Shown piece after piece: positions 1 through 10,144 of a stretch of 14,328 nucleotides of DNA. How positions within the stretch are numbered: the first letter of the stretch is position 1; each line of letters opens with the position of its first letter. The stretch is from a virus (taxonomy: Duplodnaviria > Heunggongvirae > Uroviricota > Caudoviricetes). The notes beneath the pieces are model-generated. The model did not search any database and was not told the DNA's origin. It saw only the letters and a program-made list of their open reading frames with translations. The stretch covers positions 1 to 14,328 of IMG/VR virus record IMGVR_UViG_2778261450_000002; one strand, 5' to 3'. The position numbers and the translations under genes were made by a program.

Positions 1-1248
1 ATGGCACTGAATATTCCATTCAGAAATGCGTACTATCGTTTTGCATCCAGTTACTCATTTCTCTTTTTTATTTCCTGGTCGCTGTGGTGGTCGTTATACG
101 CTATTTGGCTGAAAGGACATCTAGGGTTGACAGGGACGGAATTAGGTACACTTTATTCGGTCAACCAGTTTACCAGCATTCTATTTATGATGTTCTACGG
201 CATCGTTCAGGATAAACTCGGTCTGAAGAAACCGCTCATCTGGTGTATGAGTTTCATCCTGGTCTTGACCGGACCGTTTATGATTTACGTTTATGAACCG
301 TTACTGCAAAGCAATTTTTCTGTAGGTCTAATTCTGGGGGCGCTATTTTTTGGCTTGGGGTATCTGGCGGGATGCGGTTTGCTTGATAGCTTCACCGAAA
401 AAATGGCGCGAAATTTTCATTTCGAATATGGAACAGCGCGCGCCTGGGGATCTTTTGGCTATGCTATTGGCGCGTTCTTTGCCGGCATATTTTTTAGTAT
501 CAGTCCCCATATCAACTTCTGGTTGGTCTCGCTATTTGGCGCTGTATTTATGATGATCAACATGCGTTTTAAAGATAAGGATCACCAGTGCGTAGCGGCA
601 GATGCGGGAGGGGTAAAAAAAGAGGATTTTATCGCAGTTTTCAAGGATCGAAACTTCTGGGTTTTCGTCATATTTATTGTGGGGACGTGGTCTTTCTATA
701 ACATTTTTGATCAACAACTTTTTCCTGTCTTTTATGCAGGTTTATTCGAATCACACGATGTAGGAACGCGCCTGTATGGTTATCTCAACTCATTCCAGGT
801 GGTACTCGAAGCGCTGTGCATGGCGATTATTCCTTTCTTTGTGAATCGGGTAGGGCCAAAAAATGCATTACTTATCGGAGTTGTGATTATGGCGTTGCGT
901 ATCCTTTCCTGCGCGCTGTTCGTTAACCCCTGGATTATTTCATTAGTGAAGTTGTTACATGCCATTGAGGTTCCACTTTGTGTCATATCCGTCTTCAAAT
1001 ACAGCGTGGCAAACTTTGATAAGCGCCTGTCGTCGACGATCTTTCTGATTGGTTTTCAAATTGCCAGTTCGCTTGGGATTGTGCTGCTTTCAACGCCGAC
1101 TGGGATACTCTTTGACCACGCAGGCTACCAGACAGTTTTCTTCGCAATTTCGGGTATTGTCTGCCTGATGTTGCTATTTGGCATTTTCTTCTTGAGTAAA
1201 AAACGCGAGCAAATAGTTATGGAAACGCCTGTACCTTCAGCAATATAG
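1..1248 (+). CDS. cscB: LacY-family oligosaccharide:H+ symporter (MFS), probably sucrose permease; flanks the prophage
   Basis: 415-aa ORF from ATG at 1 to TAG at 1246-1248. Hydrophobic throughout, with LacY-like blocks (GIVQDKLGLKKPLIW, FEYGTARAWGSFGYAIG, PKNALLIGVVIMALRIL, EVPLCVISVFKYSV). Length and N-terminus match my recollection of E. coli CscB; the symbol is from memory and not verified. Confidence 0.8.
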   Translation: MALNIPFRNAYYRFASSYSFLFFISWSLWWSLYAIWLKGHLGLTGTELGTLYSVNQFTSILFMMFYGIVQDKLGLKKPLIWCMSFILVLTGPFMIYVYEPLLQSNFSVGLILGALFFGLGYLAGCGLLDSFTEKMARNFHFEYGTARAWGSFGYAIGAFFAGIFFSISPHINFWLVSLFGAVFMMINMRFKDKDHQCVAADAGGVKKEDFIAVFKDRNFWVFVIFIVGTWSFYNIFDQQLFPVFYAGLFESHDVGTRLYGYLNSFQVVLEALCMAIIPFFVNRVGPKNALLIGVVIMALRILSCALFVNPWIISLVKLLHAIEVPLCVISVFKYSVANFDKRLSSTIFLIGFQIASSLGIVLLSTPTGILFDHAGYQTVFFAISGIVCLMLLFGIFFLSKKREQIVMETPVPSAI

Positions 1249-1256
1249 ACGTAAAC

Positions 1257-1301
1257 TTTTTCCGGTTGTTGTCGATAGCTCTATATCCCTCAACCGGAAA
1301 A
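1257..1301. repeat. 11-bp perfect inverted repeat (TTTTCCGGTTG / CAACCGGAAAA) with 22-nt spacer, directly after the permease stop
   Basis: Arms at 1258-1268 and 1291-1301 are exact reverse complements. The loop is long for an intrinsic terminator and there is no clean T-run, so the function is unclear (terminator, REP-like element or junction scar). Confidence 0.35.
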
Positions 1302-1775
1302 TAATAATAGTAAAATGCTTAGCCCTGCTAATAATCGCCTAATCCAAACGCCTCATTCATGTTCTGGTACAGTCGCTCAAATGTACTTCAGATGCGCGGT
1401 TCGCTGATTTCCAGGACATTGTCGTCATTCAGTGACCTGTCCCGTGTATCACGGTCCTGCGAATTCATCAAGGAATGCATTGCGGAGTGAAGTATCGAGT
1501 CACGCCATATTTCGCTATCAGGATTCTGTGTGATGGTTACATCGCCCGGCTCAGGGCTGTTTAGTCATCAGCGCTTTCTGACAGTGCTGAGATTTCAACC
1601 TGTTGCAGTAAAAATGAGTAGATATAAGGCAAGTGTGCTGCCAAACCCATCTTTTACGGGGTGAAGGTAGATTTCGTTTGAAGGGTATCTGGTGCCCTGC
1701 AGACATCTACTTGGCGCGGCAGGGGATTGATTGGAATGGTGTTTTTTAGATGTGAAAAATATTTTACCCGCTATT

Positions 1776-1976
1776 TTACCCATTGGCGCGGCTTAAGAGC
1801 TTATTTTTGAATTCACAATGGTCACGATATAACCATCTTGCTCGCCCGTGGATAACTTTGGCTTTTGGCAGGTCGCCGGACTTAATCCGGTCATAGATGA
1901 AGGTCTTACCGAAGCCAGTATCAGCCATGATGAATTTCAAATCAACCAGTGAATCAGGTTGTAGTTCGTGTTGCAT
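1776..1976 (-). CDS. AlpA/Xis-family excisionase-like HTH DNA-binding protein
   Basis: 66 aa, ATG at 1976-1974 preceded by a GGAGA Shine-Dalgarno. Sequence (…LKFIMADTGFGKTFIYDRIKSGDLPKAKVIHGRARWLYRDHCEF…) fits the AlpA/excisionase winged-helix pattern. No integrase ORF follows it. Confidence 0.6.
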   Translation of the reverse strand: MQHELQPDSLVDLKFIMADTGFGKTFIYDRIKSGDLPKAKVIHGRARWLYRDHCEFKNKLLSRANG

Positions 1977-2021
1977 GAGTGCTATCTCCGAATATGGAAT
2001 CGAACCTGCAAATCAGGCAAG

Positions 2022-2042
2022 AAAAAGCCGCATTGATGCGGC
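2022..2042 (-). terminator. intrinsic terminator for leftward transcription, upstream of the xis-like gene
   Basis: Minus strand reads GCCGCA-TCAA-TGCGGC followed by TTTTT. Confidence 0.5.
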
Positions 2043-2111
2043 GATGGTAGGTCTGGATATCATTGAGCAATGAACAGGCCTCATCGAGAGTGAGGCGGTG
2101 TTATTTCATGG

Positions 2112-2456
2112 TTAGTCCTTGCGTAGCTCGCTGATTCTTCTGTAAGTCTCTGGTGCTTTGTTTCCGTGTATCTTCATTTCAGACTTCAACAGAGCAACGA
2201 GGGAATCCCATTCGTTGAGGATTCCTTTGAATGCCGGAACGCGCTTTGCAACCTTGTTGAATGAATCTCTGATTTCTGGAATCTGCTCAACAAGTGCAAC
2301 GCATCGTCTGAAATCGGCTGCGTCATGGGGAGCGCCGAAGTGATGACCATAGATATTCTTTTTCAGTCCACATGCGATTGAGGCAAGAGTTGCGCTACTG
2401 ATGCCGACATCGCCAGTCGATTGCCATTTCAAAACCTTCATAGCCAAATCTGACAT
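2112..2456 (-). CDS. hypothetical phage early-left protein (114 aa)
   Basis: ORF with ATG at 2456-2454 preceded by GGAGA (MSDLAMKVLKW…). The longer ORF-track start at 2483 would lie inside the terminator hairpin and has no RBS. Confidence 0.55.
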   Translation of the reverse strand: MSDLAMKVLKWQSTGDVGISSATLASIACGLKKNIYGHHFGAPHDAADFRRCVALVEQIPEIRDSFNKVAKRVPAFKGILNEWDSLVALLKSEMKIHGNKAPETYRRISELRKD

Positions 2457-2467
2457 TTCTTGTCTCC

Positions 2468-2492
2468 AATAAAAAACCGCCATCAGGCGGCT
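2468..2492 (-). terminator. intrinsic terminator with the upstream gene's stop codon in the loop
   Basis: Minus strand: AGCCGCC-TGAT-GGCGGTT then TTTTATT. The TGA in the loop is the stop of the 55-aa ORF 2483..2650. Confidence 0.5.
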
Positions 2493-2650
2493 TGGTGTTC
2501 TTTCAGTTCTTCAATTCGAATATTGGTTACTTCTGCATGTGCTATCTGCGCCCATATCATCCAGTGGTCATAGCAGTCATTGATGTTCTCTGCTTCGATA
2601 ACTCTGTTGAATGGTTCTCCATTCCATTCACCTGTGACTCGGAAGTGCAT
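2483..2650 (-). CDS. small hypothetical protein (55 aa)
   Basis: ATG at 2650-2648 with GGAG upstream, hand-translated as MHFRVTGEWNGEPFNRVIEAENINDCYDHWMIWAQIAHAEVTNIRIEELKEHQAA. Below the 60-aa ORF-track cutoff; flanked by terminators on both sides. Confidence 0.4.
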   Translation of the reverse strand: MHFRVTGEWNGEPFNRVIEAENINDCYDHWMIWAQIAHAEVTNIRIEELKEHQAA

Positions 2651-2660
2651 TTATCATCTC

Positions 2661-2687
2661 CAAAAACAAAACTCGCCGTAGCGAGTT
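2661..2687 (-). terminator. intrinsic terminator for leftward transcription
   Basis: Minus strand: AACTCGC-TACG-GCGAGTT followed by TTGTTTTTG. Confidence 0.5.
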
Positions 2688-2749
2688 CAGATAAAAGAAA
2701 TCCCCGCGAGTGCGAGGATTGTCATTCACCTTTAACGGCAAGTTGCAGG

Positions 2750-3361
2750 TTAGCCACGGTTAACCTCCAGTTGTGGTGCTGCCTCAATAGCAGCCCTGTA
2801 ACCAGCAGCATGACCGCGAAAGTTAGCAATCTCTGATAGCCACGCTTTAATCATGGCCTGAGTTGGTTCCTTCGGCACCATAACCCAACCATCCGGAATT
2901 ACCGGAGAGTTGCCACCGGGAATATTTTCCGGAATATTTTGTTGTGCGTTTTGTGGTTGTTCGGATTTACCCTGAAGCATGGCGGCGCGGCAGGCGTTCC
3001 AGCCAGCTGTTCGCCCAAGCGCGTAAACTTCAGATGGCTCAAGATAATCAATGTCATGCCCGTCCTCATCGTCGTTCTCAGGTAATGCAGCAGGTACTAC
3101 CGGTACTGGCGGAGCGGCGTAGACTTCAATAATCCCATTGTCAATAGGCCATTCTCCATCCTTGAGATAGTCACTTGTGCCGTCAACTTGCTGTTCAGCA
3201 ATGTGGAATGCACCAACTGGTTCTGCCTCAAGCGAGGCCAGTGCAATTCGTGCCAGTTCCCTAAGATTTTCGCTATATGGTGAAGTATTATCACGATTGA
3301 TTATGTGATTAGCTGTATCTATGAGAACTTGCTTTTGTTCTTCTCTGTTCATAGTGGTCAT
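2750..3361 (-). CDS. hypothetical phage protein (203 aa, acidic/Pro-rich central region)
   Basis: Long ORF with ATG start, 1 nt downstream of the stop of the preceding gene in the leftward operon. No family recognised. Confidence 0.65.
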   Translation of the reverse strand: MTTMNREEQKQVLIDTANHIINRDNTSPYSENLRELARIALASLEAEPVGAFHIAEQQVDGTSDYLKDGEWPIDNGIIEVYAAPPVPVVPAALPENDDEDGHDIDYLEPSEVYALGRTAGWNACRAAMLQGKSEQPQNAQQNIPENIPGGNSPVIPDGWVMVPKEPTQAMIKAWLSEIANFRGHAAGYRAAIEAAPQLEVNRG

Positions 3362-3362
3362 A

Positions 3363-3662
3363 TCACATCACCCTGAAGCCGTTGCATTTACGTAAGAAAT
3401 CGCAGATATAGCCCTTCATTTTTTCGTGCCAATCCCGATCATTCCCATTGCACCAACCATCAGGTGGAGTCCAGTTTTCTATCAGAGCAGCCATTTTCTT
3501 TGCTTTCGCCGGAGTAGCTGTTGCGGTATCGCAGTAATGACGAGTGTCAACAAACTTATCCATGCCATCGATATCAAGTACGCAAAACCATGTGTGATTC
3601 GGCATTTCAACAGATGGTATTTGTTGCCCACGTCGACGTTTATCAATAAGACATACAGTCAT
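3363..3662 (-). CDS. hypothetical phage protein (99 aa, Cys-containing)
   Basis: Its ATG (3662-3660) overlaps the TGA of the upstream reading frame (ATGA at 3659-3662), indicating translational coupling. Confidence 0.6.
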   Translation of the reverse strand: MTVCLIDKRRRGQQIPSVEMPNHTWFCVLDIDGMDKFVDTRHYCDTATATPAKAKKMAALIENWTPPDGWCNGNDRDWHEKMKGYICDFLRKCNGFRVM

Positions 3663-4202
3663 GGTTCCACCTTCTCTATTTGCTTAAGACCGTCTCTCAC
3701 TGCATTAAGTACGCGTTCCAGATACTGGTATTTCGGGTTTGGTATCGTTGGCCAGTTGGCATACCACGGATCATCACCAAAGAGATTCAGTAGTTTGTTA
3801 CCGACGCCGAAACAGCAGCAGCTTTCTTTTACGTCATCGGTGTTTTCCGCCTCGTCCCACATTTCGCGAGCCAGTACGGCGTCGATTTCTCTCTCTTCGT
3901 AACTTTATGATTTCTGACTTCACGAAAAGCAGATTTGCATCGTTGTCATCGTCGACCGTGCTTAGCAGTTGAGGGTCGAAATTGTCGATTAGATAATCGT
4001 TGCTAACTCGCTTAATGAACGTCTGCACATCATCACCGCCCATAGCAAACCAAGCCGCTGTCCACGCTTTTCCGTAGCAGGTGATGGTGATTCTTCCCTT
4101 TCCATGTTCGTAGTTTTCAATCATCACTCGAATCGGATCTAGTCGCTCTGCACCGGTTATAACGAATGACAACACATCAATCTTTTCAACCGTTACACTC
4201 AC
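3659..4202 (-). pseudogene. phage gene split into two overlapping frames (3834..4202 and 3659..3862) by a frameshift at a (TC)4T/(AG)4 tract
   Basis: The upstream frame starts with GTG overlapping the previous stop (GTGA at 4199-4202) and ends in a low-complexity tail (LRRERNRRRTGSRNVGRGGKHR). The downstream frame is open from 3904 and reads as ordinary protein (YEEREIDAVLAREMWDEAENTDDVKE…). Both frames are open only across 3834-3904, and the dinucleotide tract 3888-3896 lies inside that interval. A +2 or -1 nt change there would give one ORF of about 180 aa. Confidence 0.45.
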
Positions 4203-4630
4203 TGGTTGCCTCCTTTGCGAAGCTCAGCGGCGAAGGCTACTGCGTGATCATGATGTTCAAGTGTGTATGCGCACTCAGCAAACATCTCCACGCCCTGCGC
4301 TCGTACTTCAGCCAGGAAAGCGTCGGTGGCTGGGGTTTCAGTAACATCATCTTCCCATTCGCTAAACTCCTCACGACAAAAGTCATTAAATTCCTTCTCA
4401 GATTGCTTAAGTGAGGTATTTTCAGCAGCCATCTTCGCGCATTTAGCCTCAAGGTTATCAATCGTGATTCCAACAGAACGACACTCCCGCAACGCCGTTT
4501 CCAGTTTTGATTCAAGTTCACCGAACTTACGGACAAGATATTCAGCGTTTGTTTCGTTGACCTTTAAATCTCGTGGGATGCATTTGCCTTTCAGAAATCC
4601 ATCCATCTCAATTAGTGACATTTGTTTCAT
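4199..4630 (-). CDS. hypothetical phage protein (143 aa, predicted coiled-coil, acidic C-terminus)
   Basis: ATG at 4630-4628 overlaps the upstream TGA (ATGA). Heptad-like charged sequence (…[43 protein letters not shown]…). Confidence 0.6.
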
Positions 4631-4809
4631 TTCTTCCCACTCCGGCACATCGCATTCAGATATTTGTTTTGATTTACTGACGGAAAAGAATTTCTCTTAA
4701 GTAATTCCTCTCTCGATGGCATTGGCTTTACGCGTTGGCGAATAATCATTTCTGCAGGAAGAATGCCGGGGTTGTATGCAAGTCCTCTCATGGTAAATTC
4801 CTCAGTCAT
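4627..4809 (-). CDS. small hypothetical protein (60 aa)
   Basis: ATG at 4809-4807 lies 2 nt before the TGA of the upstream gene (short overlap). Reads [60 protein letters not shown]. Confidence 0.45.
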
Positions 4810-5098
4810 TACTGATAGCGCCATAGCGTGAGCGGTAATTACGCAGGCGCGGGTCGATATATTCAGGGAAGTGGGTATATGTGGCTTTACGGAATGGTCG
4901 GATTGATGTCTGGTAAATTCGCTCTCGTTCTTCTTTCTCTGCAAGCCATATACAGTGGCGAAATTCCTTTTCCTCTTTCGTTTCCTGTGGTAGCGACATT
5001 ATCCGATCGTAGTTTTTTCTGAATTTATCCAGCACCTCCGATACGGATTTGCCGGAACAGCGGCGCGGGTCATCCGCACCATACAAAGGCGCTGGCAT
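4802..5098 (-). CDS. hypothetical phage protein (98 aa, basic)
   Basis: ATG at 5098-5096 with AGGAGA 5 nt upstream. No family recognised. Confidence 0.6.
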
Positions 5099-5114
5099 GT
5101 TTTTCTCCTGTTTA

Positions 5115-5663
5115 TTATTTAGCTAACTTTTTCCAGATCGCTGAAACGTATTTGGCTTGGTGGATGGCATCATCAAGCGCGTTGTGGCGAGTTCCTTTGA
5201 ATGGCATATCTCGCTTAGGGTCGAATCCTATTACCTTTCCAAGCTCGACGATTGTTCTTACGTCGCGGTCATTCCACCACTGCCACGGAACTGGCTGCCC
5301 TGTCAGCGAATAACTGTTTCGGAGAATAACGCAGTCAAATGATGCTCCATTCCCCCAAACCTGAACGAATTTGTGGTTAGCGTTCTTTATGATGAATTCA
5401 GATAACCATGAAAGAGCCGTTGAAAGCTCCTGAGTGTTGCTGGTTAGCGATTTTCTGGCTTCTTCACTCTGTTCCAGCCACCATAAAATCGTTGAAGCGT
5501 CAGGACGCGCCCGATATCGCATTGATGACTCAAGCGAGATATTTACCGAGAACTCTTCTCCTGTTTCTCCGGTATTCGGTTCAAAGAATACCGCCCCAAT
5601 AGAAATAACTGGCGCGTATGGCCCGTTGCCCATTGTTTCAAGGTCAACCATCAAGTGATTCAT
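5115..5663 (-). CDS. DEDDh-family 3'-5' exonuclease (DnaQ-like fold)
   Basis: 182 aa with Exo I (MVDLETMG), Exo II (WGNGASFDCVIL) and Exo III (HNALDDAIHQAKY) motifs. AAGGA RBS upstream of the ATG. Confidence 0.8.
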   Translation of the reverse strand: MNHLMVDLETMGNGPYAPVISIGAVFFEPNTGETGEEFSVNISLESSMRYRARPDASTILWWLEQSEEARKSLTSNTQELSTALSWLSEFIIKNANHKFVQVWGNGASFDCVILRNSYSLTGQPVPWQWWNDRDVRTIVELGKVIGFDPKRDMPFKGTRHNALDDAIHQAKYVSAIWKKLAK

Positions 5664-5671
5664 GTAAGTCC

Positions 5672-6187
5672 TTAAATTGCGTGAATAGCGTGACGAGGGA
5701 AAGGGAGAGTTACTGGTGCAAAGGGGATATCGTCGTCAAAATCCATAGGTGGTTCGCTGTGATTTACCTGCTTCTGAGGCTGCTGTTTTTGTTGCTGACC
5801 GTTATTTCGCTGAGGTGAAGACTGTTCATTGCCTCCTTGCTTGCCACCAAGCATTTGCATGGTTCCACCAACGCCCACGATAACTTCGGTAGTGAACCGA
5901 TCCTGTCCACTTTGATCCTGCCATTTTCTTGTCCGCAATTTGCCTTCAAGATAAACCTCAGAGCCTTTTCGCAGATATTCGCTGGCAATTTCTGCCAGTT
6001 TCCCGCTCATTACCACGCGGTGCCACTCCGTCTGCTCCTTTTGCTCTCCAGTTTGCTTATCACGCCATTGTTCTGACGTAGCAACTGTAAGGTTTGCAAA
6101 TGCCGTTCCTGATGGTGAATATCTGATTTCTGGATCATGCCCAAGGCGACCAATAATGATCACCTTATTTACGCCTCTGCTTGCCAT
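5672..6187 (-). CDS. ssb: single-stranded DNA-binding protein with a 15-residue extension beyond the DDDIPF tail
   Basis: N-terminal OB-fold region is near-identical in pattern to E. coli SSB (MASRGVNKV…TEWHRVV…[15 protein letters not shown]…[12 protein letters not shown]…TTEV), followed by a Gly/Gln-rich linker and [10 protein letters not shown]. The ORF then continues [15 protein letters not shown] before TAA. Confidence 0.9.
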
Positions 6188-6895
6188 TTATGCCGCCTGT
6201 TTTAGTTCGTTAACTCTGATGTTCATTACCTGAACGCATTTAGCCTGCGCCTCCTCGTTGCCAGCCATTAATTGCCAGTCACGCTGATAACGCTCGATGA
6301 GTTTTTCCTTGTCAGTTTCTGTCGATGCATAATCGCTGAAGTCTTTCAGGATTTGTTCGCAGTCAACCGATGGAGATTTCTGGTTGGTATTTTCTGGTGA
6401 TGGTTGATTGCCAGATGCTGGCATTGCCCATCCCGGCAGCGATGGAGGGGACCAGTAAAATCCTGTTCCATCTTTCAGTTTTGCCCTGTGCCATCCCTGC
6501 TTTTTATCGAGAGATGTTTGTGCGAAACCTTCCTCAAGGTTATACAGATACCGACCGATTCCCCACTGAACGGCAGCGCGCTTCATTGCACCGGAACGAC
6601 CACCTTTGACGGCTTCTACCTGCGTGTTTTCAGCAGCATCCCATTTGGTTACCCATTCGGAATCAATCTTTATTGATATGCCGCATTCAACGCCGCCGTT
6701 GTTGGGAATATCGCGGTATTCATTGCGCCATCCTGCTTTGCCACAAACATCGTCCAGGCGTTTCATGATTGCCCGGTTCGTTACATAAGCCAGCACCATA
6801 GCCCACACTTTGCCATCGCGTGTTTTACCGCTTTGCTGTATTCGCCATTCGATATCTTCAGGGCTGAATGGCTCATCGAATTTATTCAAATCCAT
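6188..6895 (-). CDS. Rad52-like single-strand annealing protein (Sak-type phage recombinase)
   Basis: 235 aa with the Rad52/Sak pattern (…GKVWAMVLAYVTNRAIMKRLDDVCGKAGWRNEY…WDAAENTQVEAVKGGRSGAMKRAAVQWGIGRYLY…). Sits immediately upstream of ssb. Confidence 0.75.
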   Translation of the reverse strand: MDLNKFDEPFSPEDIEWRIQQSGKTRDGKVWAMVLAYVTNRAIMKRLDDVCGKAGWRNEYRDIPNNGGVECGISIKIDSEWVTKWDAAENTQVEAVKGGRSGAMKRAAVQWGIGRYLYNLEEGFAQTSLDKKQGWHRAKLKDGTGFYWSPPSLPGWAMPASGNQPSPENTNQKSPSVDCEQILKDFSDYASTETDKEKLIERYQRDWQLMAGNEEAQAKCVQVMNIRVNELKQAA

Positions 6896-6994
6896 AATTC
6901 ACCTCAGAATGGACATGGCCCAAGGAAATAACGCTGATTTAATACTTCGACTCGGGACAAATTAAGGCATACCCGCATTCCTTCGCGGTCACCA

Positions 6995-7153
6995 TTATGG
7001 CGATACCAGAGAGCTTTCTGCGTGTACATGCGTCTCTGTAACTTGCTCTCCTTCACTGTGGTTGCAAGTGACATGAATATCTCCTTCGTTACCGATTAAT
7101 TCTTTCATCTGACGAATGAATTCTTCGTCTGACCAGTTATCTGTAAAATTCAT
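6995..7153 (-). CDS. small hypothetical protein (52 aa) in the kil-like position
   Basis: ATG at 7153-7151 overlaps the TGA of the cIII-like ORF (ATGA). Reads MNFTDNWSDEEFIRQMKELIGNEGDIHVTCNHSEGEQVTETHVHAESSLVSP. Function not recognised. Confidence 0.4.
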   Translation of the reverse strand: MNFTDNWSDEEFIRQMKELIGNEGDIHVTCNHSEGEQVTETHVHAESSLVSP

Positions 7154-7320
7154 GGACGGCCTTGTTGTTTCAAAATATCCCAAAGCTTTTCGAGCAAACT
7201 TTTCATTCTTGGTTGTTTAAAGTCTGCTCCGGTTAAAATATTTTTTCGTGAATGCTGTACCGATAAAATCGGGTTGAAAGGGCGAACCGATGCCGCCCCT
7301 GCAATAGCGAACTGTTGCAT
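7150..7320 (-). CDS. cIII: CIII-like protein (putative FtsH inhibitor that stabilises CII)
   Basis: 56 aa, hand-translated as MQQFAIAGAASVRPFNPILSVQHSRKNILTGADFKQPRMKSLLEKLWDILKQQGRP. Resembles lambda CIII (MQYAIAGW… and …LIDILNQPG). AAGGAG RBS 6 nt upstream. Below the ORF-track length cutoff. Confidence 0.55.
   Translation of the reverse strand: MQQFAIAGAASVRPFNPILSVQHSRKNILTGADFKQPRMKSLLEKLWDILKQQGRP

Positions 7321-8791: not shown

Positions 8792-10144
<1,353 letters not shown>

Follow-up and report, generated by a model that had tools for sequence, protein, structure and literature searches.

Introduction

Lambdoid and P22-like phages carry, between their recombination genes and xis, a non-essential mosaic segment, the usual variable "ea" accessory region, in which counter-defence genes are found. 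In phages HK620 (hkaD–hkaJ) and Sf6 (genes 19–25) the order runs from the recombination genes through abc2, a DUF2737 gene, an HkaH-type gene and Ea22/EaA-type genes to a TorI-type xis by attP, while the P22 ea region carries eaC–eaE, orf56, abc2 and abc1, and the lambda exo–xis region carries orf60a, orf63, orf61, ea22, ea8.5 and orf55. In P22, Abc2 binds to RecC, and RecBCD then serves as a partner of the phage annealing protein. For the newly described Oad2 family, a 2026 preprint reports that HK446 gp27 (Oad2) directly inhibits the P2 OLD nuclease, binding it and blocking its activation; gp33 is an OLD trigger, both proteins are encoded in the recombination locus, and the HK75 homologue failed to inhibit P2 OLD (bioRxiv 10.64898/2026.07.10.737580).

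The window analysed here, a viral DNA stretch of 14,328 nt, contains at 2112–5098 what an initial annotation described as eight tightly coupled genes, none recognisable, between a recombination module and xis. That the region belongs to the ea kind was correctly seen. We consider it very probable that the block belongs to an HK620/Sf6/P22-like Escherichia coli prophage at argW/cscB and forms the non-essential "ea" part at the promoter-distal end of its early-left operon.

With HK620 and Sf6 the window shares the gene order given above, together with TorI (100% identity), Abc2 (97% to HK620 HkaJ and Sf6 gp25), the HkaH-type protein (78%) and Sf6 gp22 (92%). It differs from them in adding a phiTE_072-family gene, lambda orf55 and an HK022 ORF, in lacking eaG, the DUF551 domain, the Lar-like gene and the P2 Orf83-like gene, and in its recombination module, which consists of a Rad52-like protein, an SSB and a 3'-5' exonuclease. 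P22 shares abc2 (92%), orf56 (DUF2737, 76%), a match of its EaE to residues 60–113 of the 143-aa protein (64%) and a match of its EaA to part of the 203-aa protein; the window, however, lacks abc1, eaC, eaD, eaF, eaG and eaI and has a different integrase/excisionase system. The lambda exo–xis region is comparable in genomic role and position, and its orf55 is 98% identical to the 55-aa gene, whereas orf60a, orf61, orf63, ea22 and ea8.5 have no detectable homologue in the block.

Results and Discussion

Gene content and layout of the block

The features of the block and of its xis-proximal flank are as follows.

4802–5098, minus strand: abc2, anti-RecBCD protein 2, 98 aa (PF11043, phrog_656)
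4627–4791, minus strand: DUF2737 small protein, 54 aa (PF10930; HK97 gp38, HK620 HkaI, P22 orf56)
4199–4630, minus strand: 143-aa helical/coiled-coil protein of the HK97 gp37/HK620 HkaH/P22 EaE/HK446 Oad2 family
3659–4202, minus strand: phiTE_072-family gene (PF26211), 181 aa when intact, split here by a 2-bp deletion
3889–3896, minus strand: (AG)4 tract, the frameshift site; (AG)5 in intact alleles
3363–3662, minus strand: DUF7739 protein, 99 aa (PF24881; Sf6 gp22, HK75_27)
2750–3361, minus strand: 203-aa EaA-family mosaic protein with a Pro-rich acidic linker, assigned from database relatives
2669–2720, minus strand: two intrinsic-terminator-like hairpins in tandem, within the 99-nt gap that follows the 203-aa gene
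2483–2650, minus strand: 55-aa protein, lambda orf55 (lambdap35, NP_597778; phrog_676), with a GGAG SD sequence
2474–2493, minus strand: terminator-like hairpin over the 55-aa gene's stop codon and the ATG at 2483
2112–2456, minus strand: 114-aa protein (phrog_1229), whose gene adjoins xis in HK022
2008–2042, minus strand: terminator-like hairpin (2042–2027) and cII-site-like TTGCCTGATTTGC (2020–2008), upstream of xis
1776–1976, minus strand: torI-type excisionase, 66 aa, 100% identical to HK620 HkaC and Sf6 gp18, annotated TorI
1691–1702, plus strand: attR core remnant (HK620 attP core), the prophage end, with the cscB flank to its left

From cI the gene order leads on to the Rad52-like gene, ssb, the exonuclease gene, abc2, the DUF2737 gene, the Oad2/EaE-family gene and the frameshifted phiTE_072-family gene, and onward to the DUF7739 gene, the EaA-family gene, the paired hairpins, the lambda orf55 homologue, a hairpin, the HK022-type ORF, a hairpin with a pI-like site, torI and attR. 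Nine leftward ORFs are read in the block (4802–5098, 4627–4809, 4199–4630, 3834–4202, 3659–3862, 3363–3662, 2750–3361, 2483–2650 and 2112–2483), at the coordinates first reported, and they make eight genes, 3834–4202 and 3659–3862 being halves of one. Tight coupling throughout, as first described, does not hold: there are nine ORFs, one gene is frameshifted, several terminator-like hairpins are present, and tight packing is found only in 5098–2750, with a 99-nt gap from 2750 to 2650. Four-base start/stop overlaps do occur at 4627–4630 and 3659–3662 (ATGA) and at 4199–4202 (GTGA). The proposed overlap at 4802–4809 depends on an unlikely start, an ATG at 4809 without an SD sequence; that at 2483 likewise depends on an ATG enclosed in a terminator-like hairpin and lacking an SD sequence; and 3361–3365 is a 1-nt spacer (TGAtATG). 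From this layout, the genes in 5098–2750 would be translated as a coupled string. All ORFs except the frameshifted gene are intact and have good SD sequences; not all of the genes are housekeeping genes, and degeneracy is confined to one of them.

The genes are not the unrecognisable set described at first: each falls in a catalogued family, and classical phages carry close homologues of each at the matching relative position. Abc2 matches PF11043 (Anti-RecBCD_p2) at E 2.9e-61 (204 bits against a cut-off of 25), its residues 1–98 aligning to profile positions 1–97; its gene is preceded by a GGAG SD sequence and follows directly on the Rad52-like gene, ssb and the exonuclease gene. Because Abc2 is functionally part of the recombination module, the block boundary had been placed one gene off, with Abc2 as first member. 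It is the sole block gene with a known function and, by analogy with its P22 counterpart, would bind RecC and make RecBCD a partner of the phage annealing protein.

Close homologues of the other block genes are found in HK620, Sf6, HK97, HK75, HK022, P22 and lambda. The DUF2737 protein (PF10930, E 3.6e-31, 107 bits against a cut-off of 25) is 93–98% identical to its HK97, HK620 and HK022 counterparts. Its start is best placed at 4791, which has GAGG upstream and is the PGAP choice in strains 1190 and MB06231 and the start given in most database entries; the PF10930 match begins at residue 7 of the 60-aa form that would start at ATG 4809, and with the 4791 start a 10-nt gap separates the gene from abc2. 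The DUF7739 protein (PF24881, E 1.2e-20, 74 bits against a cut-off of 27) occurs in exactly this sequence on at least 1000 contigs.

The 203-aa protein, whose Pro-rich acidic linker we confirm at residues 82–110, has over 7,500 relatives in databases, and many of these bear the name Eaa or DUF551 protein. Over roughly its first 160 aa (79% of the query) identity to DUF551-containing proteins reaches 98%, with a differing C-terminus; a Pfam search at E 0.1 gave no match and hence no DUF551 (PF04448), nor is PF04448 recorded for its full-length relatives. Partial matches also extend to Sf6 gp21 and an HK022 ORF. At least 80% of the gene is found in 2 of 5,426 genomes, and parts of it in 866.

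Searches for function added little to these family assignments. NCBIfam returned no match for any ORF; PADLOC defence-system models gave no credible match among the nine ORFs, the only match being of xis to mad1; PDB sequence searches with six proteins and a profile search with phiTE_072 returned chance-level matches only. Structure and profile searches assigned no function to the DUF2737, phiTE_072, DUF7739, EaA-like, orf55 or 114-aa proteins, we found no functional study in the literature on DUF2737, DUF7739, DUF551, EaA or phiTE_072, and the block sequences are absent from the supplements of the accessory-gene screens of Silas et al. Across 1200–5800 an Rfam search found no RNA family; a repeat search gave nothing meaningful. 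The remaining four small proteins would probably bind host proteins. The locus matters little beyond annotation; what is useful is the recognition of Abc2 in the block and a corrected map that shows eight genes (one frameshifted), revised starts and terminator-like hairpins.

A frameshift in the phiTE_072-family gene

Where the window has ORFs 3834–4202 and 3659–3862, strains 1190 and MB06231 have a single 546-nt CDS. The loss of one AG unit (2 bases) is the only indel relative to the intact CDS, every other aligned position matching strain 1190, and the two halves match phrog_3451 consecutively, at positions 104–216 and then 217–282. PF26211 (Phage_phiTE_072) is recorded on all 120 homologues among the matches listed, of 229 in total. 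The GTG at 4202 is preceded by a strong AGGAGG SD sequence, and the ATG at 3862 has none.

The split could be a sequencing or assembly error, with the gene intact in the living strain, a reading that we hold plausible though short of likely. The exact frameshifted product is found on one contig only, the gene does not otherwise differ from the intact allele, and a 42-mer with (AG)5 occurs in 84 of 5,426 complete E. coli genomes while the 40-mer with (AG)4 occurs in none. Against an error, 12 distinct database sequences of several backgrounds and sources, E. albertii among them, end in the same frameshifted tail. This suggests real, recurrent slippage, although an artefact arising repeatedly at this tract would give the same picture. 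Since the window is 99.95% identical to public contigs with an intact gene, the frameshift is either very recent or an error, and the gene would be inactive in the source strain or mis-assembled. Programmed frameshifting at the AG tract was also considered and rejected: it would need a +1/−2 shift, a slippery site is lacking, the gene is normally intact, and its downstream half lacks an SD sequence.

An Oad2-family protein with a distinct C-terminal module

The 143-aa protein is 78% identical to HkaH, 71% to HK75_28 and 56% to HK97 gp37, and it aligns over its full length with HK446 Oad2 at 54% identity (BLASTP, E 2e-57). A seven-sequence alignment places conserved blocks in common between it and Oad2, with motifs that include LRKGGNQ, and its gene directly follows abc2 and the DUF2737 gene, as in HK446, HK75, HK97 and HK620. 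Identity to Oad2 reaches about 93% over residues 1–73, and a gp33-like ORF, corresponding to the OLD trigger, is present in the same operon at 6995–7153 of the window. The two proteins differ in length (143 against 175 aa) and in their central and C-terminal segments: the 143-aa protein has a central segment of the HK75/HkaH type and a different C-terminal module (residues 113–136), which also occurs in phage D6. An AF2 model is all helical at low confidence (pLDDT 52), and the sequence gives weak coiled-coil profile matches. A coiled-coil protein was first proposed and an all-helical one is predicted, but the acidic C-terminus reported with it is not found; the acidic patch is central (residues 86–98), and the C-terminus reads ELRKGGNQ.

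By analogy with Oad2, we propose that the 143-aa protein is most likely an oligomeric helical protein that would bind an OLD-type ABC-ATPase/TOPRIM nuclease, encoded by the host or by a prophage, and block its activation. In doing so it would counter the alarm that the phage sets off through its own RecBCD-directed genes, among them the gp33-like gene. It is doubtful that P2 OLD itself is inhibited, because the HK75 homologue is closer to the 143-aa protein (71%) than Oad2 is (54%) and yet is inactive; the target may therefore differ or be absent. The suggestion that the block houses anti-defence functions is accordingly reasonable for a region of this kind, and the likeness to Oad2 lends it real though indirect support, but the only known function is that of Abc2.

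Somewhat unlikely, in our estimation, is the alternative that the 143-aa protein modulates the choice between lysis and lysogeny in the manner of Ea22 and inhibits no defence system. Its residues 1–43 are 100% identical to the N-terminus of HK022p35, which is annotated as Ea22-like, and lambda Ea22, which favours lysogeny, has the same plan of a short N-terminal domain and a coiled-coil (PMC10834534; PMC7093339); the lack of OLD inhibition by the HK75 homologue (bioRxiv 10.64898/2026.07.10.737580) would also fit. However, the lambda ea22 region gave no tblastn match to the protein at E 1e-3, the protein lacks an Ea22-type C-terminal domain and a PDB search returned no match to the Ea22 CTD, and its full-length likeness is to the gp37/HkaH/Oad2 group.

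Returning to the Oad2-like reading, a fuller scenario, which we regard as unlikely in its entirety, would make the protein a recombinant Oad2-family inhibitor whose swapped C-terminal module directs it against another OLD-family or related ABC-ATPase nuclease; it would act as a cis-linked antidote to the phage's own gp33-like and Abc2 RecBCD-directed triggers; the (AG)5 tract of the neighbouring phiTE_072-family gene would, in the same scenario, be a recurrent slippage hot spot and an off-switch in some lineages. The comparison links an HkaH/gp37-type gene, accompanied in its operon by a gp33-like trigger, to the Oad2 anti-OLD family. Should the protein have a new target, this locus would offer a convenient natural variant in which to follow the evolution of anti-OLD specificity by module exchange.

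Terminator-like hairpins and the xis-proximal genes

Ten terminator-like sites lie in 1200–5800, against 3.9 ± 1.9 in shuffled sequences. The tandem hairpins after the 203-aa gene have stems at 2720–2699 (9 pairs) and 2688–2669 (8 pairs), each followed by a T-run; the hairpin at 2474–2493 is 100% identical to HK620 sequence just upstream of pI; and 2008–2042 corresponds to the annotated pI/cII site of HK620. From this layout and the HK620 annotation, the block would be transcribed from pL after induction or infection, and antitermination would be needed to pass the hairpins.

Of the two genes set among these hairpins, the first encodes a protein 98% identical to that of the lambda ORF just upstream of xis, and the second a protein 97.6% identical to the product of an unannotated HK022 ORF. 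The start of the latter at 2456 has GGAG upstream and is the PGAP start in strain 1190; the exact 114-aa product occurs on at least 1000 contigs, against 16 for a 123-aa version starting at ATG 2483. Relative to HK620, the gene lies on a 435-nt insertion (2032–2466) bracketed by two related terminator tails.

That insertion, the terminator-like hairpins bracketing each gene and the independent occurrence of both in other phages (lambda orf55, HK022) would suit morons, that is, self-contained cassettes expressed in the lysogen for exclusion or host benefit, with 2483–2650 and 2112–2456 outside the early-left transcript. We judge this quite improbable: upstream of the two genes the leftward strand shows no sigma-70-like consensus promoter, both share the orientation of the operon, and neither protein matches defence-system models.

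The prophage end and the distribution of the block

Similarity to HK620 begins inside the annotated attP core of HK620, and cscB occupies 1–1248. The element that carries the block is a prophage located at the cscB/argW site; TorI is its excisionase, and its integrase lies at the other end. A decaying cryptic-prophage remnant, silent and drifting, whose ORFs are no longer relevant, is very improbable, for although one gene is frameshifted and strain 1190 has a DUF4942 fragment at the junction, the other ORFs are all intact with good SD sequences, near-identical contigs retain the phiTE_072-family gene, and the immunity, replication and recombination genes in the rest of the window are complete. 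The lack of an integrase within the window was dismissed as a sign of decay, since HK620 and Sf6 have attP between int and xis, and in this phage group int lies by design at the opposite end of the prophage. The segment is built as a cassette mosaic in which Abc2 is common and the rest is swapped between prophages and plasmids of about 100–110 kb, and the same block is found joined to three different recombination modules.

Layout and gene content of the block

Our analysis demonstrates the layout of the leftward block between the recombination module and xis, together with its homologies, its mosaic pattern and a frameshift, and shows the feature to be real but ordinary, a region of an already known kind. 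All of the ORFs that the initial annotation had placed on the leftward strand exist, and the 4-base overlaps to which it drew attention are genuine (ATGA at 4627-4630 and 3659-3662, GTGA at 4199-4202). Its count of eight ORFs needs correction, as the sequence as it stands holds nine, two of them halves of one gene. Nor are the genes unrecognisable: profile and homology searches leave no orphan, every family being catalogued, and a known gene, abc2, had been overlooked, which encodes the only established function in the block.

Genes of the block
4802-5098, minus: Abc2 (PF11043, E 3e-61; 92% identical to P22 Abc2)
4627-4791, minus: DUF2737 protein (HK97 gp38, HK620 HkaI, P22 orf56)
4199-4630, minus: 143-aa protein of the HK97 gp37/HkaH/EaE/Oad2 group
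3659-4202, minus: Phage_phiTE_072 family (PF26211), frameshifted
3363-3662, minus: DUF7739 protein (Sf6 gp22, 92% identical)
2750-3361, minus: 203-aa EaA-family mosaic lacking DUF551
2483-2650, minus: lambda orf55 (lambdap35, 98% identical)
2112-2456, minus: HK022 ORF adjoining xis (97.6% identical)

Two start codons deserve comment. The ATG needed for an 8-nt overlap proposed at 4802-4809 lacks a Shine-Dalgarno sequence (SD); the DUF2737 gene has an ATG at 4791 with GAGG upstream, which corresponds to the PGAP start in strains 1190 and MB06231, falls where the Pfam match begins and yields the 54-aa form predominant in databases. Similarly, no SD precedes the ATG at 2483, which falls within a hairpin, and the ATG at 2456, preceded by GGAG, gives a 114-aa form whose exact sequence occurs on at least 1000 contigs. 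Of the block described as tightly coupled, only 5098-2750 is closely packed; beyond it comes a 99-nt gap with terminator-like hairpins.

Hairpins and putative promoter element
2720-2699 and 2688-2669: two terminator-like hairpins in the 99-nt gap after 2750
2493-2474: hairpin following the 55-aa gene
2042-2027: hairpin preceding the xis promoter region
2008-2020: element TTGCCTGATTTGC upstream of xis, counterpart of the cII-activated pI promoter in the HK620 annotation

Terminator-like sites number 10 in 1200-5800, against 3.9 +/- 1.9 in shuffled sequences, and no RNA family matched in the region. From this layout and the HK620 annotation, we infer that the block would be the distal portion of the early leftward transcript, with the hairpins read through while antitermination is active, translational coupling spanning DUF2737 to the 203-aa gene, and a putative pI-type promoter element kept upstream of xis.

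A mosaic of conserved and variable cargo

In the 203-aa protein, roughly the first 160 residues reach up to 98% identity with proteins called Eaa or DUF551, and the last ~45 residues form a different module; no DUF551 domain is detected in it, and it is partially similar to Sf6 gp21 and P22 EaA. Relative to HK620, the 114-aa gene is carried on an insertion of 435 nt, bracketed by related 14-nt terminator tails at 2018-2031 and 2467-2480 that match one HK620 sequence at 12/14 and 14/14 positions, respectively, an arrangement suggesting that cassettes are exchanged when terminator sequences recombine.

Prevalence among 5,426 complete E. coli genomes (megablast; genomes matching at least 80% of the query, then genomes with any match)
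abc2: 1087; 1101
DUF7739 gene: 430; 431
55-aa and 114-aa gene pair: 296; 2711
143-aa gene: 76; 1002
phiTE_072-family gene: 69; 93
203-aa gene: 2; 866

The whole segment is found at the 80% threshold in one genome only. An identical stretch running from ORF3 to cscB is joined in different strains (database loci L013-L017) to three recombination modules, namely Rad52-like/SSB/exonuclease, a Sak4-like AAA protein with SSB, and Erf with a gp40-like protein. By these sequence comparisons, the block is a classic mosaic accessory region. The recombination breakpoint of the shared stretch lies near abc2. Database proteins P0375 and P0470 fuse DUF2737 to a 143-aa-type protein, and P0006 and P0007 fuse phiTE_072 to DUF7739 or DUF551; each may be a genuine fusion or an artefact of reading through a 4-base overlap.

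An Oad2-related protein

That the block is accessory, possibly anti-defence cargo is reasonable overall, with homology to a characterised inhibitor supporting one gene, that of the 143-aa protein; defence-system models match none of the nine ORFs. The protein is 78% identical to HK620 HkaH, 71% to HK75_28 and 56% to HK97 gp37, and part of P22 EaE matches. A July 2026 preprint describes HK446 gp27, or Oad2, as a relative of P22 EaE that protects cells against the P2 OLD nuclease, forms a stable complex with OLD and prevents activation of the OLD tetramer; gp33, a small protein of the Oad2 locus, is reported to trigger OLD, and an HK75 homologue 54% identical to Oad2 is reported not to inhibit it (bioRxiv 10.64898/2026.07.10.737580).

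The 143-aa protein is 54% identical to gp27 (E 2e-57), and its gene occupies exactly the position of gp27, directly after abc2 and DUF2737. Residues 1-73 are nearly identical, and a 15-letter motif and LRKGGNQ are common to both, whereas the central and C-terminal segments differ. A 52-aa gp33-like ORF lies in the same operon (6995-7153, minus), the first 45 residues of its product being nearly identical to HK75/HK446 gp33. Because of the gp27 identity, the shared position and this gp33-like protein, an Oad2-like direct inhibitor is the most likely kind of function for the 143-aa protein. Its target may be something other than P2 OLD, since its centre resembles the inactive HK75 homologue more closely and its C-terminal module, which occurs in phage D6 too, is unlike that of Oad2. 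An AF2 monomer model, all helical and unreliable (pLDDT 52), fits an oligomeric coiled coil.

P22 Abc2 redirects RecBCD, and the Abc2 encoded here would be expected to do likewise; the 143-aa protein would be expected to inactivate, through binding, a defence of the nuclease type that detects RecBCD interference.

A frameshifted phiTE_072-family gene

The ORF pair 3834-4202 and 3659-3862 is one broken gene: the halves cover consecutive phrog_3451 positions (104-216 and 217-282), and strains 1190 and MB06231 carry a single 546-nt CDS at the equivalent of 3659-4202. The upstream half has an excellent start (AGGAGG-N6-GTG), and no SD precedes the ATG at 3862. In alignment, the window is short of exactly one AG unit from (AG)5 and is otherwise identical to strain 1190 in the aligned stretch, which places the frameshift as follows.

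3889-3896: (AG)4 tract, frameshift site

Programmed frameshifting is unlikely, as it needs a +1/-2 shift, a slippery site is lacking and most alleles are intact. Two public contigs with the intact gene share 99.95% identity with the window over 8,432 nt, so the frameshift either arose very recently or is an error. The (AG)5 allele occurs in 84 of the 5,426 complete E. coli genomes and (AG)4 in none of them. The same frameshifted tail ends 12 distinct database sequences of different allelic backgrounds, including E. albertii, so slippage recurs at this tract, whether in vivo or during sequencing.

Members of the family are often found on contigs and plasmids of ~100-110 kb. E. coli plasmid p4_0.2 (NZ_CP023851.1, 110 kb) carries at 3716-7231 an array of phiTE_072-family, DUF7739, Ea22-like, ClpX-zinc-finger and DUF551 genes, and thus lambdoid prophages and large plasmids, the latter possibly phage-plasmids, exchange the same accessory cassettes.

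Prophage setting and host junction

After cscB, the window is a lambdoid prophage reading leftward from the immunity region.

1-1248, plus: cscB, sucrose permease
1691-1702: attR core remnant, GGTGCCCTGCAG
1776-1976, minus: 66-aa excisionase
5115-5663: 3'-5' exonuclease
5672-6187: SSB
6188-6895: Rad52-like annealing protein
9193-9825: cI

The excisionase is 100% identical to HK620 HkaC and Sf6 gp18, both annotated TorI, and similarity to HK620 starts within the annotated HK620 attP core. In HK620 and Sf6 this core lies between int and xis, so an integrated prophage has xis at one end and int at the other; the integrase must therefore lie at the far prophage end, outside the window, and we rejected its absence as a sign of decay. 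The prophage/host junction, marked by the attR core remnant, sits directly beside the TorI-type xis, with a host-side spacer at 1249-1690; in strain 1190 the equivalent spacer contains a fragment of a DUF4942 gene. Related prophages occupy the same cscB-adjacent site in many E. coli genomes. A further ORF (8792-9268, minus) follows immediately downstream of cI and is read in the same direction, with an internal start giving a signal-peptide-like N-terminus; strain 1190 has rexA/rexB in its place, so it may be expressed in the lysogen.
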